Shown: piece after piece, positions 5,804 to 12,082 of the stretch
Layout of the letters: each line of letters opens with the position of its first letter
How positions within the stretch are numbered: position 1 is the stretch's first letter
DNA from: Armatimonadota bacterium
Lineage (GTDB): Bacteria > Armatimonadota > SYMT01
Reading direction: 5' to 3'
Length of the DNA stretch: 64,000 nt
Assembly: GCA_046292385.1 (NCBI GenBank)
Contig: JBKBRF010000004.1
Coordinates: forward strand, 128,001-192,000
Notes under the pieces: model-generated
The model's database searches: none
The model's input: only the letters and a program-made list of their open reading frames with translations
Told to the model about the DNA's origin: nothing
Position numbers and translations under genes: made by a program

Positions 5804-6448
5804 GTGAAGCCCCGGCACGCCGCCCTGCTGGTCCTGACGCTCTGCCTGGTGTGGAAGGCCTACGCCGCGCTCGCGCCTGACTTCGAACGCGACGGTCGCA
5901 CGGAGCGCGTCCTTGCCAGCCATGGCCTGCACCGGGAGCGCCTCCGCGGGGCGTCACTTCGGGGGCTGAACCTGCGGGGCCTCGACTTCTCTGGCCTCGA
6001 TCTCGATTCTGCGGATCTCCGCCGGGCCGACCTCCGCGGCGCTTCCTTCGAGGAAGCCAATCTCTCCGGAGCGCGCCTGGACGGCGCCGACCTTCGCGGA
6101 GCGAGCTTCCGCAGCACCGACTTGATCTTCACCAGCCTGGACGGGGCGGACGCTCGCGGCGCGGACCTGCGCGGCTCCTTCCTGGTGGTGACCTTCAAGG
6201 GTACCGACCTCCGCGGCGCCGACCTTCGCGTCCGAAAGATCACGAGGAACGCGGCGGATTGCGGCGCCCCATTTCAGTGCTGCAGCGGAGCCACCGACCT
6301 CCGCGGCGCCCGCTACGACGCCCGCACTCTCTTTGCACCGGAGATCAACCCGGTGCAGCGGGGGATGGTGTTCGTCTCCACCCCCCCATTAACCCTGAAG
6401 ATCGGTTCACCGCGGAGGCGTGATGAGGTTACACCGAGATGGCTGTAG
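5804..6448 (+). CDS. Secreted pentapeptide-repeat protein
   Basis: Signal-like N-terminus; tandem A(D/N/S)LxG repeats; 'GARYDART' end. Confidence 0.85.
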   Translation: MKPRHAALLVLTLCLVWKAYAALAPDFERDGRTERVLASHGLHRERLRGASLRGLNLRGLDFSGLDLDSADLRRADLRGASFEEANLSGARLDGADLRGASFRSTDLIFTSLDGADARGADLRGSFLVVTFKGTDLRGADLRVRKITRNAADCGAPFQCCSGATDLRGARYDARTLFAPEINPVQRGMVFVSTPPLTLKIGSPRRRDEVTPRWL

Positions 6449-6466: not shown

Positions 6467-6523
6467 GGTAAGCTCTGAGTGCTACGTGAAACTCCCACCT
6501 GGGGAGACCACTCGAGAGGGGCT

Positions 6524-6823
6524 ATGATGTCGATCACACGCCGAATCCAGAAGGTGGGAAACAGTAAGGGCCTCATTCTCACGAGTGACATGCTCGCTCA
6601 CCTCGGCGTGGACGACCAGGTCACCATCACATACGAGACGGGCCGGATCGTCTTGAGCGCGCCAGCGGCTGCAGCGAGGCTGGCCCCGGGGCGTAATCGC
6701 CAGAGCAAGACAGAGGCGATGCGGGCGACATTCGACCAGTACGAAGATGCGCTTCAGCGGATGGCAGAGGTGCCGAGAGGGGGGCTTTCGATGGATGCCG
6801 CTCGGGATCAGAAGAGCGAGTGA
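6524..6823 (+). CDS. AbrB/MazE/SpoVT-type antitoxin
   Basis: 'RRIQKVGNSKGLIL...LGVDDQV' AbrB-fold signature; 4-bp overlap with the toxin gene. Confidence 0.85.
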   Translation: MMSITRRIQKVGNSKGLILTSDMLAHLGVDDQVTITYETGRIVLSAPAAAARLAPGRNRQSKTEAMRATFDQYEDALQRMAEVPRGGLSMDAARDQKSE

Positions 6824-7251
6824 CTCCGGCATCCGGGGATGAGGGAGGCGAGCACCTCGGTGTCGCCTTCCTCACCGTAGCGGACGTTGTGGATCTGCAC
6901 CGCGAGGCGGTCCGCCGCTTCTCGCCGGGAGAGTCGCTGGTTCTGCGGGATCCCGGATTGCTCGAGTCGGCGGTGATGAACCCGCAGCAGACCTTTGACG
7001 GTGAGTTCCTCTACTCCTCGCTCGCAGAGATGGCCGCGGCCTATTTGATCGGGCTCGCGCTCAACCATCCCTTCGAGAACGGTAACAAGAGAGTCGCCTT
7101 CGCTGCGTGCTCCATCTTCCTTCGCATCAATGGATACCGCCTGGTGCTAAGCCAGGATGCGGCGGTGGAGCTCACTTTCAACGTGATCAATCGCGTCCTC
7201 GATCGCCCACAGATCATCCGGGTGATCGAAGACGCGATGGAAGAGCTTTGA
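6820..7251 (+). CDS. doc: Doc (death-on-curing)/Fic family toxin
   Basis: 'LRDPGLLESA..P', 'NHPFENGNKR' (Lys variant typical of Doc). Confidence 0.9.
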   Translation: MTPASGDEGGEHLGVAFLTVADVVDLHREAVRRFSPGESLVLRDPGLLESAVMNPQQTFDGEFLYSSLAEMAAAYLIGLALNHPFENGNKRVAFAACSIFLRINGYRLVLSQDAAVELTFNVINRVLDRPQIIRVIEDAMEEL

Positions 7252-7280
7252 GTTGGATCCGCGTGTGGCGAAGCCTCGCG

Positions 7281-8264
7281 TCACTCGGCGCGCAGCACCT
7301 CCGGGTTGACGCAGTTCGGCGGTCGCTCGCCCTTGAGCACCGCCAGGATGTTGCGGACCGCCATCCGCGTCATGGCGGCGCGGGTGGGGCCGCTGGCGCT
7401 GCCGAGGTGGGGGAGCACGAAGATCCCGGGCGTGTGCAGGATCGGGTCGTCCGGTCGAGAGGGAGGCTCCGGATCGGTCACGTCGAGGCCGGCGCCCGCG
7501 ATCGTGCCGCTCGTGATCGCTTCCAGCAGCGCCGCCTGGTCCACCAGTCCGCCGCGTCCGGTGTTGACCAGGATGGCGGTCCGCTTCATCTGCCGCAGGC
7601 GCTCCGCGTTGATCAGGTGGCGCGTCTCCGGCGTCATCGCGCAGTGGAGGCTGACGAAGTCGCTCTCCGCCAGGAGCCGGTCCAGGGAGCTGTACTCGCA
7701 GCCGAGGGAGAACTCCAGCTCCGGCTTGCGAGTGCGGGAATGGTAGAGCACCCGCATCCCGAATCCCTGTGCCCGCCGCGCGACCGCCGCGCCGATCCGG
7801 CCCATGCCGACGATCCCGAGGGTCGCCCCGCTCACTTCCTGGCCCCACAGGAGCCCCTGCGCCCACTGCCAGCGATCTTCCCGCGCGGCGACAAGCCCCT
7901 CGCCGAAGCGGCGGGCGGCGGCGATGATCAGCCCGAAGGCGAGGTCCGCGGTGGCGTTCACCACCACGTCCGGCGTGTTCGTCACGATGACGCCGCGCGC
8001 GGTCGCGGCGGGAACCTCGATGTTGTCGTAGCCGACTCCGAAGTTCGCTACCACCTTCAGTGAGGCGCCGGCGGCGTCGAGCACCGCGGCGGAGACGCCC
8101 GCGCCGCTGACGGGAAGCAGGGCGGCGACTCCTTCGGCGTGGGTAAGCATCTCTCCCAGGGAAGGCTTCTCGGGAGCCGGGCGGACCGTCACCTCCGCCA
8201 GCTCACGGAGTGGAGCGAGCTCCGCGTCGGCCACGGGGCCGGTTACGAAGACGCGCGGCTTCAT
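7281..8264 (-). CDS. D-isomer-specific 2-hydroxyacid dehydrogenase (glyoxylate/D-glycerate reductase-like)
   Basis: VGYDNI, NTPDV, GMGRIG, NTGRG, LDVTDPEP, PHLGSA. Confidence 0.92.
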   Translation of the reverse strand: MKPRVFVTGPVADAELAPLRELAEVTVRPAPEKPSLGEMLTHAEGVAALLPVSGAGVSAAVLDAAGASLKVVANFGVGYDNIEVPAATARGVIVTNTPDVVVNATADLAFGLIIAAARRFGEGLVAAREDRWQWAQGLLWGQEVSGATLGIVGMGRIGAAVARRAQGFGMRVLYHSRTRKPELEFSLGCEYSSLDRLLAESDFVSLHCAMTPETRHLINAERLRQMKRTAILVNTGRGGLVDQAALLEAITSGTIAGAGLDVTDPEPPSRPDDPILHTPGIFVLPHLGSASGPTRAAMTRMAVRNILAVLKGERPPNCVNPEVLRAE

Positions 8265-8307
8265 TCCTGCCCTCCGGCGAGCGGGGGCACTCGATCGTTC
8301 ATCGGCA

Positions 8308-8805
8308 TCAGTAGGTCCAGTCCTTGTGCTGGGCGTAGGCGAGGATTCCGAGCAGGCACTCCGCGCTCGGACGCCCGCGCGGGCCGCTCAGGATCCAGTA
8401 GCAGGAGAGGTTTCCCTGGCTGTCGATCAGGAAGACGGCGGGCGCCATGTAGTAGTGGTACGAGTCCGGGAGCTGGTGGTGCGGCTCGTAGATGCCGAGC
8501 ATCTCCCCGACCGCGCCGTCGTCGTCGATCAGAATCCGGGGCCGGATCTTGAATTGCTCCCGGAAGATCCGGTGCTCCTCTCGGCCGCCGCGCAGCAGAA
8601 AGACCAGCTCCGTGTTGTTCCACTTGAAGATGTGCTGGAACGTGTCCCAGAGGGCGAACTCGCCCCGGGTGGTCGGTCAGAACTCGCCGCGGCAGGCGTG
8701 GATGATCACCATCTTGCCGCGGTAGTCGCTCAGGCGCCACTCTTCGCCGTCGGTATCCTTCAGGACGATATCGGGGACCGGCTCCCCATTCTTAAGCGAG
8801 GACAT
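8308..8805 (-). CDS. AhpC/TSA (peroxiredoxin-like) selenoprotein, 165 aa, Sec at codon 43
   Basis: Hand translation from ATG 8805 (GGAG 6 nt upstream): MSSLKNGEPVPDIVLKDTDGEEWRLSDYRGKMVIIHACRGEF-TGA-PTTRGEF...ILIDDDGAVGEMLGIY...PAVFLIDSQG...; continuous thioredoxin-like fold across the TGA at 8677-8679. Confidence 0.85.
8647..8672 (-). promoter_or_regulatory. Putative bacterial SECIS element
   Basis: Upper stem GGGGCG/CGCCCU starts at +11 after UGA, apical loop AGUU, lower CCA/UGG pairing. Confidence 0.7.
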
Positions 8806-8838
8806 AGGACTCTCCGCGCGCGGCCGACCCGCGCGCCG

Positions 8839-9027
8839 TCAGGCAGATTCGGAGGGCTGCTCCGGGAGCGGGCGCAGGGCCAGGTAGCAGCTGGTGCACT
8901 TGAGGTGCTGGCGCGCGCCGCTGCCGGCAATCTCCAGCGTGCCGCAGCATTCGGGGCAGAAGTCCCGCTCCGTCAGCTCGAGCCGCACCAGCTCTCCGCG
9001 GACGATCGTCTCGGTAACGATTCTCAT
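8839..9027 (-). CDS. Small zinc-ribbon protein
   Basis: 62 aa, CPEC...CTSC; starts 7 bp after the moaB stop. Confidence 0.65.
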   Translation of the reverse strand: MRIVTETIVRGELVRLELTERDFCPECCGTLEIAGSGARQHLKCTSCYLALRPLPEQPSESA

Positions 9028-9034
9028 GGTCCGG

Positions 9035-9553
9035 CTACCGGTGCAGCTCCCAGACCAGGTGCTCCAGCTCCGGGATGATCAGGCGGTCCATCGCCAGCTT
9101 CACCGCGTTGGAGCTTCCCGGCATGCTGAAGAAGACGCGCCTGCGGTAGACGCCGGCGGTGGCGCGGCTGAGCATGGCGGCGGCGCCGATCTCCTGGTAC
9201 GAGAGCATCCGGAACAGCTCCCCGAAACCGGACAGCTCCTTCTCCAGGCGCTTGGCCAGGGCGTCGTAGGTGGTGTCGCGGGTAGCGATGCCGGTGCCGC
9301 CGTTCAGCAGCACCGCCTGCGCCTCGCCCGCGTCCAGCTCGTGGTCGATCAGCGCCAGGATCCGCTCCGGCTCGTCTTTCACGATCTGGTAGAAGACGAC
9401 GCGGTGCCCCGCGGCCTCCAGGCGCTCGCGGATCAGTTGGCCGCTGGTGTCGGTCTCCGGCGTGCGGGTGTCGCTGACGGTGAGCACGGCGCAAGCCACC
9501 GGGCCTCGCTCCGCGGCGGCGGCCCGGTGCTGTTGGGTCGATTCACTCGGCAT
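9035..9553 (-). CDS. moaB: Molybdenum cofactor biosynthesis protein MoaB/Mog
   Basis: LTVSDTR...DTSG, NGGTGI..RD.T, GFGELFR, AMLSRA.AG, MPGS. Confidence 0.92.
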
Positions 9554-9614
9554 GGAGCTCCGCGGCGGCAGCTGGGCGTCTGCCTGCCGCTTCCTTTCTC
9601 GTGAACATGATGCT

Positions 9615-10658
9615 CTACAAGCCTACCCGCCGGCCGGTCGCGGCGCTTTCGTACGCGCCGAGGCACATGTGCGTGGAGACCCGCCCGCCGCGTGCGTCGC
9701 AGTCCGGCGCCGCTTCCGCCTTGAGCTGGTCGATCCACGGCCTCGGCACGGCGGCGATCCGCTCGCCGTGCGTCTTCGGAATCGGCATGCGGATCTCTTC
9801 CCACCGCTGCGGCTCGCCCCGCCGGTAGAGCTTCAGCGGGACCGCTCCCTCGGGTGCGAACGGGGTGGAGACCCCGTCTCCGTAGTAATGCTGCACCGTC
9901 CCGCGGTCGCCGTAAACCTCCGTGGTGATCTCCGCGCCGAGGGTGACCGAGCAGTTGTAGAGCAGCCCGAGCGCGCCCTGACGGAACCGGTAGATCGCCA
10001 TCCCGGTATCGTCCGGCGCGCAGTCGGTCAGGACGTTCCCGATCTCCGCCATTACGCTGACCGGCTCTCCCAGGAACCAGTAGAGGAGGTCCGCGGCGTG
10101 GACCGCGTCGTCCATGAACATGCCCTTGTTGGCGACCGGATCGATGTGCCAGCGGCTCGGGCCGGAGAGGAACGCCTCGTTGAAGAGGAGGTTGAGGCAG
10201 TGCCGGCGGCGCAGGGTGCCGATCTTCCCCAGCGTGCCGTCGTCGATCATCTGCTTCATCCGCTGGTTCACCGGATCGCAGCGCATCTGGAACGCCATGC
10301 GCAGCGTCACTCCGGCGCGGTCGACCGCCGCGATGATCCGGTCGCACTCCTCCAGGGTGAGCGCCATCGGCTTCTGCAGCAGGATCTGCTTGCCCGCCTC
10401 CGCCGCGGCGACGCAGTGGTCGCCATGCTTGTTCGTCTCGCTGGTGACGATCACGGCGTCGAGGTCCCGCCGGCCGAGCAGGTCCTCCAGGTGCGGGGTG
10501 AACTCCATCCCGAACTTCTCGGCGCCCGCCCGGCCGCGGTCCAGGTCATCGTCCCAGGCGGCGACCAGGCGCACGTCGTCCCAGTCCTTCATCTGGTTGC
10601 AGTAGGCGTTGATGTGCCCGTGTGCGAAGCTGATCACGCCGACGTTGATGCGACTCAT
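9615..10658 (-). CDS. Gfo/Idh/MocA family oxidoreductase
   Basis: Rossmann N-terminus, 'H...[15 protein letters not shown]', 'GMFMDDAVH'; start MSRINVG. Confidence 0.9.
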
Positions 10659-12082
10659 CGCTCTCCTTCCATCTTCCGCAGCAATCCAGCCGCGGCGGTC
10701 GCCCACGACTCTCCGGTCCCCGGGACGTACCGGGCGCTACGGTAGCCCGCCTCATACCCGCCCTCGGCGTAGCCCTGGCGGTGGGGGATGTAGCCCATCG
10801 CCCCGTTGGTGAGGCCGATCGTGCGGGTCACGGCGAGGGGGGAGTCGGCCTCCACCTGCCGCGCCAGCTCTACGAAGACCTCTCCCGGCAGCGCCGCCAG
10901 GCCGAACTGGCCCAGGCGAAGCGCCGTCACGCGCGCGGTGTGCTCACGGTCGCGTGTCTCCGCCAGCACCACCGCCGCCGGCGCGAAGAGGCCGTTGAAC
11001 TCGAAGGCGTCCTTTCCGGTGCGAAGGCGCTCCCGGGCCTCCGTCAGCTCTTCCGGGGTGGGGCGGCGGAGACGCGACTTCACCCCGGTGCTCCGCGCCT
11101 GGAGCGGGCCGCTCAGCGCCTCGCCTCCCTTCGCCAGCGCCGCCAGGGCGGACGCCGCAAGCTGCCGGCCGATCCGGCGCGACTCCTCCGGGCCGGACTT
11201 CTGCGCGGCATTCTTCACGTCGATGTGGTTGATGTTGCCGCAGCAGGTGTTGAGGAACACGACACGCCAGTCCGCTCCCAGTCGCTCGCGCAGCGCCTCG
11301 GAGAGGTGCGCGGGGTAGTCGGCGGAGTACTGCGTGCCGCTCACGCAGTCCGGATGCAGGCCATACAGGACGGTGACGACCTTCCGGTCCGGGAAGCGGA
11401 GCAGGTGTACGCGCGGATCGATGGTGCCGGCCGGCTCCACCACCTCCGGGTTGCTGCGGCCGGGGTTGGTGCGCACGGAGCCGTCCCGCATCCGGAAGCG
11501 TCGATAGAACGCGACCGTCTCCTCGCGCCCCTCGTGCAGGGTCGGCGCGCTCTCCGGCGCAGCCTCCGCTGCCGCGCGCCCGACCGCCTCCGCCGTCTTG
11601 CGGACGAGGGTGTCGACCCACGTGGTATCCACCTGGCCCGGGTAGAACTCCGGGTAGATCTTCTCCGTGTCGGAGGTGAAGGTTCCCTCGCGTGGGATCA
11701 TCCCACCGGTGTGCGTGTGGGTGGCGTGGACCCAGACGTGGCGCGGCGCGGGCCGGACCGAGTCGGCCATCGCTTTCCGGATCCGCTGCGCCAGCGGCTC
11801 GCCGACCGCAATCAGGTCGCAGGCCACGATCGCCACGCTTTCTCCGCCTTTCCGAAGGTAGAGCACCTTGCTCTTGAGCGGGTCGAGCGTGCCGGTCGCG
11901 CGACGGTCGCCGAAGTAGCCCGGCATGGAGCCGCCGAGCGGCGGAGTGACGTCGGCCTCCGCATAGCCGACGTGGAGCACTGCGGGAGCGGCGGCGGGAG
12001 CGGTGCGCTGCCACGCGAGGGCGGCAGTCACGAGCCCCGATGCGACGGCGGCACGGGCGATCAGGGGAAGCGGTTGGGCCAT
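10655..12082 (-). CDS. Neutral/alkaline ceramidase-like secreted hydrolase
   Basis: 'VGYAEADVTPP', 'HATHTHTG', 'YSADYP', 'LPGEVF', 'GYIP....AEGGYE'; 4-bp overlap with the next gene. Confidence 0.75.
   Translation of the reverse strand: MAQPLPLIARAAVASGLVTAALAWQRTAPAAAPAVLHVGYAEADVTPPLGGSMPGYFGDRRATGTLDPLKSKVLYLRKGGESVAIVACDLIAVGEPLAQRIRKAMADSVRPAPRHVWVHATHTHTGGMIPREGTFTSDTEKIYPEFYPGQVDTTWVDTLVRKTAEAVGRAAAEAAPESAPTLHEGREETVAFYRRFRMRDGSVRTNPGRSNPEVVEPAGTIDPRVHLLRFPDRKVVTVLYGLHPDCVSGTQYSADYPAHLSEALRERLGADWRVVFLNTCCGNINHIDVKNAAQKSGPEESRRIGRQLAASALAALAKGGEALSGPLQARSTGVKSRLRRPTPEELTEARERLRTGKDAFEFNGLFAPAAVVLAETRDREHTARVTALRLGQFGLAALPGEVFVELARQVEADSPLAVTRTIGLTNGAMGYIPHRQGYAEGGYEAGYRSARYVPGTGESWATAAAGLLRKMEGER

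Follow-up and report, generated by a model that had tools for sequence, protein, structure and literature searches.

A peroxiredoxin-fold gene interrupted by one TGA

A gene on the minus strand of the window (the whole 64,000-nucleotide stretch of DNA analyzed here) very probably encodes a peroxiredoxin-fold redox enzyme with selenocysteine (Sec) in its active site, which is the best overall explanation of our observations. From sequence comparison, UGA43 of this gene is almost certainly decoded as Sec and would yield a full-length protein of 165 aa. The gene and its landmarks are:

8308..8805, minus strand: AhpC/TSA (peroxiredoxin-fold) selenoprotein gene, UxxT form, 165 aa (translation, Pfam, fold model)
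8677..8679, minus strand: in-frame TGA, codon 43, putative selenocysteine (TGA/Cys-only column, sel genes)
8810..8815, minus strand: likely ribosome-binding site GGAGAG, purine-rich, ahead of ATG 8805 (read from sequence, function presumed)

The frame starts at ATG 8805, meets a single internal TGA at codon 43 (8679-8677) and terminates at a second TGA (8310-8308); around codon 43 the read-through translation is IIHACRGEF*PTTRGEFALW. A preliminary description of this DNA had proposed that the list of open reading frames showed just a tail of a longer AhpC/TSA frame, broken once at this codon. This proved correct: the ORF track holds a 64-aa tail (8502-8308), and Pfam AhpC-TSA (PF00578) matches residues 7-133 of the read-through protein, spanning the TGA (E 1e-16; 61.4 bits against a gathering cut-off of 26), with Redoxin as the second Pfam match. 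The codons for RGEF (GGCGAGTTC) are present twice, 12 nt apart, flanking Sec (window 8665-8691, minus strand), and the repeat is kept at the protein level as RGE[FY]-x4-RGE[FI].

Alternatively, the gene could be split or a pseudogene, with a real stop here, or the TGA could be a sequencing error or encode Trp under an alternative code; we regard all of these as extremely improbable. In run X4, from another soil study, a 505-nt contig spans 8428-8932 and carries the same TGA, with one difference, at 8703; given this independent contig and the recurrence of TGA in 35 distinct loci (own gene included, see below), TGA43 is not a sequencing error. Wholesale reassignment is contradicted by the gene's own terminator, which is TGA. 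Two RNA-library contigs also cover the TGA region with one difference each (X17, 8597-8700; X20, 8580-8739), but because they are short, of low depth and possibly DNA we excluded them as evidence of expression.

The Sec column among homologues

Of 74 DNA loci examined, three fell short of column 43 and eight were duplicates. In the remaining 63 distinct loci the column 43 codon was TGA in 35 (own gene included) and TGC or TGT in 28, with no other codon and hence never Trp. The TGA-type loci range from 57% to 99% identity and keep an intact downstream frame. This pattern is hard to reconcile with a real stop, a reading that can draw on the way databases call these genes, as fragments only: among the best 120 of 122 matches in a protein search, 91 were pieces of 96-124 aa lacking the N-terminus (not every one necessarily from a Sec gene), and separate N-terminal pieces stop exactly at RGE[FY]. 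The 29 full-length matches in the same set all have Cys at column 43. For the Sec forms, public gene calls are thus fragments on both sides of Sec, as the preliminary description had anticipated in suggesting that annotation would split the Sec forms. Sec and Cys orthologues are close, at about 60% identity.

Names of homologue sources pointed to Armatimonadota, Abditibacteriaceae among them, and we take the phylum to be Armatimonadota on that basis. Profile matches at E 1e-15 or better, weaker sister-family matches included, were found in 45 of 401 genomes of the phylum, mostly in two families (5/6 genomes of f1 and 26/27 of f5), with members of the core enzyme family present in several families. 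A search of 1.8 billion representatives returned only two matches at E 1e-30 or better, indicating that the family is narrow. By these searches and the tree described below, it occurs in a few lineages of this phylum, with repeated Sec/Cys switches.

Selenium machinery

The genome (98% complete) holds selA, selB, selC and selD, all above cut-offs; selA, selD and tRNA-Sec lie together on contig C11 and selB on C16. Its SelD carries an in-frame TGA of its own, in GG*ASK. ARAGORN called a second tRNA-SeC (TCA) at C77:16947-17029, absent from the Rfam tRNA-Sec matches and probably a false call.

Of the 14 other genomes that carry TGA at column 43, selA exceeds its cut-off in 12. One exception, G272, has selA in two frame-shifted pieces (G272:C8:669523-670408), and the other, G258 (72% complete), has no match. 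The G258 copy (L108, G258:C112:416-916) contains a second TGA, at a Trp codon in the lower SECIS stem; this second TGA and the missing selA match would suit a real stop at that locus. Decay of Sec use or assembly errors are possible explanations for both genomes. By comparison, selA occurs in 2 of 22 genomes with a verified Cys form (G053 and G065). Because many of these genomes are closely related (12 of the 22 Cys genomes share a genus), the counts lack independence, and we claim no statistic from them.

A SECIS signature specific to TGA genes

The preliminary description had pointed to a bacterial SECIS hairpin just 3' of the TGA:

8651..8666, minus strand: SECIS upper stem-loop GGGGCG-AGUU-CGCCCU, +11 to +26 after UGA, loop +17 to +20 (core conservation, loop position, bSECIS constraints)

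With its 4-nt AGUU loop at +17, 6-bp stem and -14.8 kcal/mol, the hairpin fits the bSECIS constraints given in the available text of PMC13188914 (loop of 3-9 nt, stem of 4-16 bp, G in the first two loop bases, 16-37 nt from the UGA, MFE <= -7.5). On its own sequence, however, it does not exceed chance: in a single-sequence fold of 80 nt (z -1.27), 23 of 200 shuffles were equally stable, and among 2000 synonymous recodings 26.6% folded as well and 8.6% recreated the core. Since the hairpin alone is unexceptional, we took support from the comparison among loci and not from single-sequence folding.

That comparison upheld the hairpin as a feature conserved in TGA genes. The SECIS core GGGCGAGTTCGCCC is present in 32 of 35 TGA loci and in none of 28 Cys loci, and its exact 15-nt form in 32/35 TGA genes against 0/11 Cys genes coding for the same RGEFA peptide. 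The downstream, in-stem Arg codon is CGG in 34/35 TGA genes and 0/28 Cys genes; as an internal control, the Arg codon of the upstream RGE (four codons upstream) is CGG in just 17/35 TGA genes. Likewise, the Glu codon is GAG in all 35 TGA genes and in 10/28 Cys genes. Synonymous constraint on the hairpin codons is therefore specific to TGA genes. Compensatory changes are almost absent within the family, the hairpin being nearly invariant. Together with the sel machinery and the TGA/Cys-only column, this TGA-specific signature supports the earlier proposal of a Sec enzyme, in which SelB would bind the in-frame hairpin, with its AGUU loop 17 nt downstream, and deliver Sec-tRNA at UGA43.

Active-site register and conserved residues

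The model of the protein (pLDDT 90.8) places U43 at the start of helix 44-54 and belongs to the Prx/AhpE/Bcp fold class. In structural comparison it lies closest to AhpE, Bcp and Prx6 (AhpE 5id2: Z 19.7, rmsd 2.4, 151 aligned; BcpB 5epf: Z 19.6, rmsd 2.9, 152 aligned). Aligned to Bcp4, U43 takes the place of the Thr of the peroxiredoxin TxxC motif, T46 that of the peroxidatic Cys, and P122 that of the catalytic Prx Arg. This register rules out a Bcp/PrxQ protein with UGA at its peroxidatic Cys.

We counted residue conservation in 83 distinct core rows (32 Sec, 51 Cys) and 18 rows of the sister family. R39, G40, U/C43, Y119, A121, W137 and P142 are invariant in the core; T45, R143 and Y165 nearly so. 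Position 42 is aromatic in 83/83 core rows, and P44 is variable (His in 17/32 Sec rows). T46 is Thr in all 32 Sec rows and Thr or Pro in all 51 Cys rows (Pro in 12). The cis-Pro position, P122, is Pro or Ser throughout the core, the Prx Arg being absent, and is Pro in 23/32 Sec, 49/51 Cys and 18/18 sister rows. In the portions of PMC2757866 available, peroxiredoxins are described as using the second motif position, with Arg at the cis-Pro site.

No second Cys column is invariant in the 83 core rows, yet every core protein has at least one other Cys. Cys38, the extra upstream Cys to which attention had been drawn, is not conserved (26/32 Sec, 20/51 Cys and 2/18 sister rows) and, being variable, is unlikely to be essential. 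C135 is found in 30/32 Sec, 29/51 Cys and 0/18 sister rows, and C150, also variable, in 22/32 Sec rows. From these columns we infer a monoselenol or monothiol enzyme, in which Sec would hold the first position of the CxxC site and Thr the second, without a conserved partner Cys.

Relation to known selenoprotein families

Taken together, the sequence features place the protein with the known Prx-like (RGxWUPxC) selenoproteins, as a UxxT variant. It belongs with neither the glutathione peroxidases nor the true peroxiredoxins. With the Prx-like thiol:disulfide oxidoreductase selenoproteins (PF00578; UxxC/UxxU; WP_010940744.1) it shares the Pfam family, the Sec position, the RG-x-aromatic-U/C-P register (the representative in the deep-Sep supplement reads YRGAWUPYC) and a Pro before the FxID strand. 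It differs from them in having Thr in place of the second Cys/Sec and in a distinct invariant C-terminal motif, SGPRG plus Tyr. The canonical Prx-like member of the same genome (C18:101120-101497) has the same AGUU loop at +17 and scores only about 19 bits against the profile of the new family.

Three other families come close in one respect or another. Peroxiredoxins (Bcp/PrxQ, AhpE, Prx6; Sec form TxxU, NCBIfam PrxU) are the closest solved folds, and their Glu three residues past the second position is retained as E49; however, UxxT turns their PxxxTxxC/U motif around, and Pro/Ser occupies the place of the catalytic Arg. The UxxS selenoproteins (cd02970, PF13911) likewise have a Prx-like fold, with Sec first and a hydroxyl residue second, as far as the available text of PMC13188914 and PMC9312934 goes, but they carry another domain and their deep-Sep representative reads RHFGULIC. 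PF13911 did not match our protein at E 0.01; three of seven homologues gave 17-20 bits (cut-off 27) and the others nothing. Glutathione peroxidase-like selenoproteins (PF00255, UxxT) share register and first-position Sec. They carry a WNF segment, which corresponds to Y-x-A-P here.

The preliminary description had called UxxT a glutathione-peroxidase-style motif, and according to the sections of PMC2757866 available a Cxxc site with Thr is typical of those enzymes. The likeness holds for register only: neither our protein nor seven homologues matched PF00255 (GSHPx) at E 0.01, the fourth position is Pro in 12/51 Cys rows, and the invariant Thr is the third residue, T45. Among the matches listed in the top rows of the structural searches there was no glutathione peroxidase, though one may lie further down. 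Against NCBIfam, the protein and nine homologues lay far below every curated cut-off, SelL_rel_redox, WAxxUGC_long and PrxU included, and for a Cys homologue the ESM Atlas gave nothing more specific than generic AhpC/TSA clusters.

The suggestion of a poorly described subfamily also held up, there being no entry in the 2026 catalogue table and no NCBIfam model at cut-off. In its Table 1 and the text available, PMC13188914 gives TxxU and UxxC/UxxU as the forms of PF00578 selenoproteins and UxxS as that of the cd02970 family; UxxT is restricted there to the GPx-like, OsmC-like, UXX-star and similar families outside AhpC, with no UxxT AhpC/TSA family and no Armatimonad- names. The accessible part of PMC9312934 agrees with this listing and assigns the UxxS family to PF13911; that of PMC1976440 contains no such family, and the deep-Sep supplements (PMC12013277) contain no UPTT, UHTT or SGPRG. 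A literature search gave no description of this family. BSepDB covers genomes of Armatimonadota and gathers its entries by tblastn at E 0.01, as stated in the available text of PMC13326102, so some members may already be listed in it under 'Prx-like'. By the rule of reviews that the same domain with a different Sec motif makes a distinct subfamily (PMC9312934, in the part available), our finding contributes one more subfamily to a catalogue of roughly 119 families of prokaryotic selenoproteins. It involves neither a new recoding mechanism nor a new fold.

Likely chemistry and genomic context

The product would be a soluble redox enzyme of the thioredoxin/peroxiredoxin fold whose single catalytic selenol sits where helix 1 begins. 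As substrate class a hydroperoxide, and hence peroxidase activity, is our best guess, at slightly short of probable. The selenolate would attack the hydroperoxide, and oxidized Sec would be recycled by an outside thiol, low-molecular-weight or thioredoxin-type, as in one-Cys peroxidases. The part that the Prx Arg or the GPx tetrad plays in shaping the site probably falls here to R39, T45, R47/E49, Y119, W137 and the SGPRG loop (R143), and Cys orthologues would do the same job in genomes without Sec machinery. What speaks against the peroxidase step is the missing Prx Arg together with Pro or Ser at the cis-Pro position, which points to thioredoxin-like chemistry.

These same residues, with Pro at that position in most rows of every group, argue for a monothiol-type reductase, a reading we hold to be appreciably short of probable. 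Such an enzyme would attack a mixed disulfide or a specific protein thiol, in the manner of CxxS/T glutaredoxin- or ArsC-like proteins, without reducing peroxide; the zinc-ribbon protein encoded upstream would perhaps be its substrate or its helper. The long invariant surface motif (SGPRG and C-terminal Tyr) also suggests a specific partner. The closest folds are nevertheless peroxidases, though fold alone shows no function. Chemistry other than peroxidase or mixed-disulfide reduction takes the remainder of the probability. As to how oxidized Sec is resolved, a two-center enzyme, in which C135, C38 or C150 would resolve Sec43 after local unfolding as in atypical 2-Cys peroxiredoxins, appears quite unlikely: each of these Cys is frequent among Sec rows and no core protein lacks another Cys, but none of them is invariant, and C135 is missing from many Cys rows and from the whole sister group.

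The gene lies in a same-strand run whose order is Gfo/Idh oxidoreductase, MoaB/Mog, a small Cys-rich protein, our gene and a 2-hydroxyacid dehydrogenase:

8839..9027, minus strand: 62-aa CPECC...CxxC zinc-ribbon-like ORF, directly upstream (adjacency in loci)
9035..9553, minus strand: MoaB/Mog-type molybdopterin biosynthesis gene, upstream (PF00994, E 1e-32; neighbor by position only)

The 62-aa ORF is probably co-transcribed with the Sec gene. In 14 of 63 loci, every one of them TGA-type, it immediately precedes the enzyme gene, which favors the monothiol reductase. Against that reading, it occurs in only 4 of 401 phylum genomes, all in this genome's own family and each time beside the Sec gene, whereas the enzyme core is found in several families. 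It had no Pfam or NCBIfam match, and the ESM Atlas gave hypothetical proteins or zinc-finger look-alikes. MoaB/Mog is upstream in 12/63 loci and a Cys-rich ferredoxin-like gene in 7; as these neighbors occur in close relatives only, synteny alone may explain them. Clustering of neighbors over the 63 loci, dominated by shadow ORFs, found none kept across the whole family, so genomic context gives no substrate. No sigma-70-like promoter was found in 7000-11000. Elsewhere in the window, a tRNA-Glu (6361-6434, minus strand) adjoins two plus-strand ORFs that we take, from their motifs, to be AbrB/MazE-like (6479-6823) and Doc/Fic-like (6820-7251) and to resemble a toxin-antitoxin pair.

Further probable thioredoxin-fold selenoprotein genes in the genome

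Among 32 AhpC/TSA matches in the genome, 12 (our gene included) contain one in-frame TGA. The further AhpC/TSA-fold genes with an active-site TGA (n=11) lie, by contig and position, at:

C41:2746, C18:101120, C17:7123, C18:43626, C22:72648, C6:130728, C14:76331, C14:77522, C4:280346, C13:85065, C1:280379

They comprise one BCP-type TxxU gene, eight TlpA/ResA-like UxxC genes (several of them fusions with a long N-terminal region in front), a canonical RGAWUPFC gene and a deiodinase-like gene. Ten of the eleven share a hairpin with its loop at +17/+18; with our gene this makes 11 of 12, all with G in the first two loop bases and with differing stem sequences, while 1.5% of 5000 random TGA triplets pass a similar hairpin test. 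The BCP-type paralogue and SelD do not fit this +17/+18 geometry. The gene at C1:280379-280726 (plus strand) encodes a second UxxT thioredoxin-fold selenoprotein (FGSFT-U-PAT), which we assume to be deiodinase-like from its motif; deiodinase-like selenoproteins are catalogued as UxxC in the available part of PMC13188914. Genomes of relatives have many TGA-bearing PF00578 matches too. The full selenoproteome of this genome may be large, and these genes suggest that the lineage has many thioredoxin-fold selenoproteins that have apparently been little described.

Evolution of the family and Sec/Cys switching

In a tree of 105 rows, from which the G258 gene and short rows were left out, the core family and the sister group separated with 100/100 support. 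Sec and Cys rows are interleaved, requiring seven changes for Sec (gain and loss not distinguished), at least three of them forced by well-supported branches, and none of the 200 bootstrap trees showed a single Sec origin. The sister of G077 (Sec) is G053, which has the Cys form, selA and a degraded hairpin, and the Cys form of G065, which also has selA, is one base off the SECIS core.

The sister group (18 rows) has C-P/A-T-[SAT] with only Cys at the active site, and a GP-K-G loop and terminal Tyr as in the core; 11 of 18 rows have no other Cys. Members such as L127-L140 and P0128, P0132, P0134 and P0157 read RG-x-F-C-P-T-S/A/T, HGEPA, GPKG and terminal GxY. No curated family matched this clade above cut-off, and several f5 genomes contain it alongside the core family.

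A broader reading, on the whole unlikely, would join the core (RGE[FY]-U/C-[PH]-T-[TP]-RGE) and the Cys-only sister group (RG-x-F-C-P-T-[SAT]), both with the S/T-GP-R/K-G loop, in one unnamed monothiol Prx-fold clade that reduces peroxides or a dedicated substrate by catalysis unlike that of Prx or GPx, with a latent hairpin easing the switch between Sec and Cys. The peptide downstream of the active site would carry this latent hairpin, such that a few synonymous changes plus TGC/TGA would convert Cys to Sec or the reverse.

The close Sec and Cys orthologues and the clean synonymous SECIS signature make the family useful for comparing selenium with sulfur catalysis and for following SECIS gain and loss. 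If the broader reading is true, the latent hairpin would explain the repeated switches in the tree, and the family would be a natural test case for the origin of bacterial SECIS elements.
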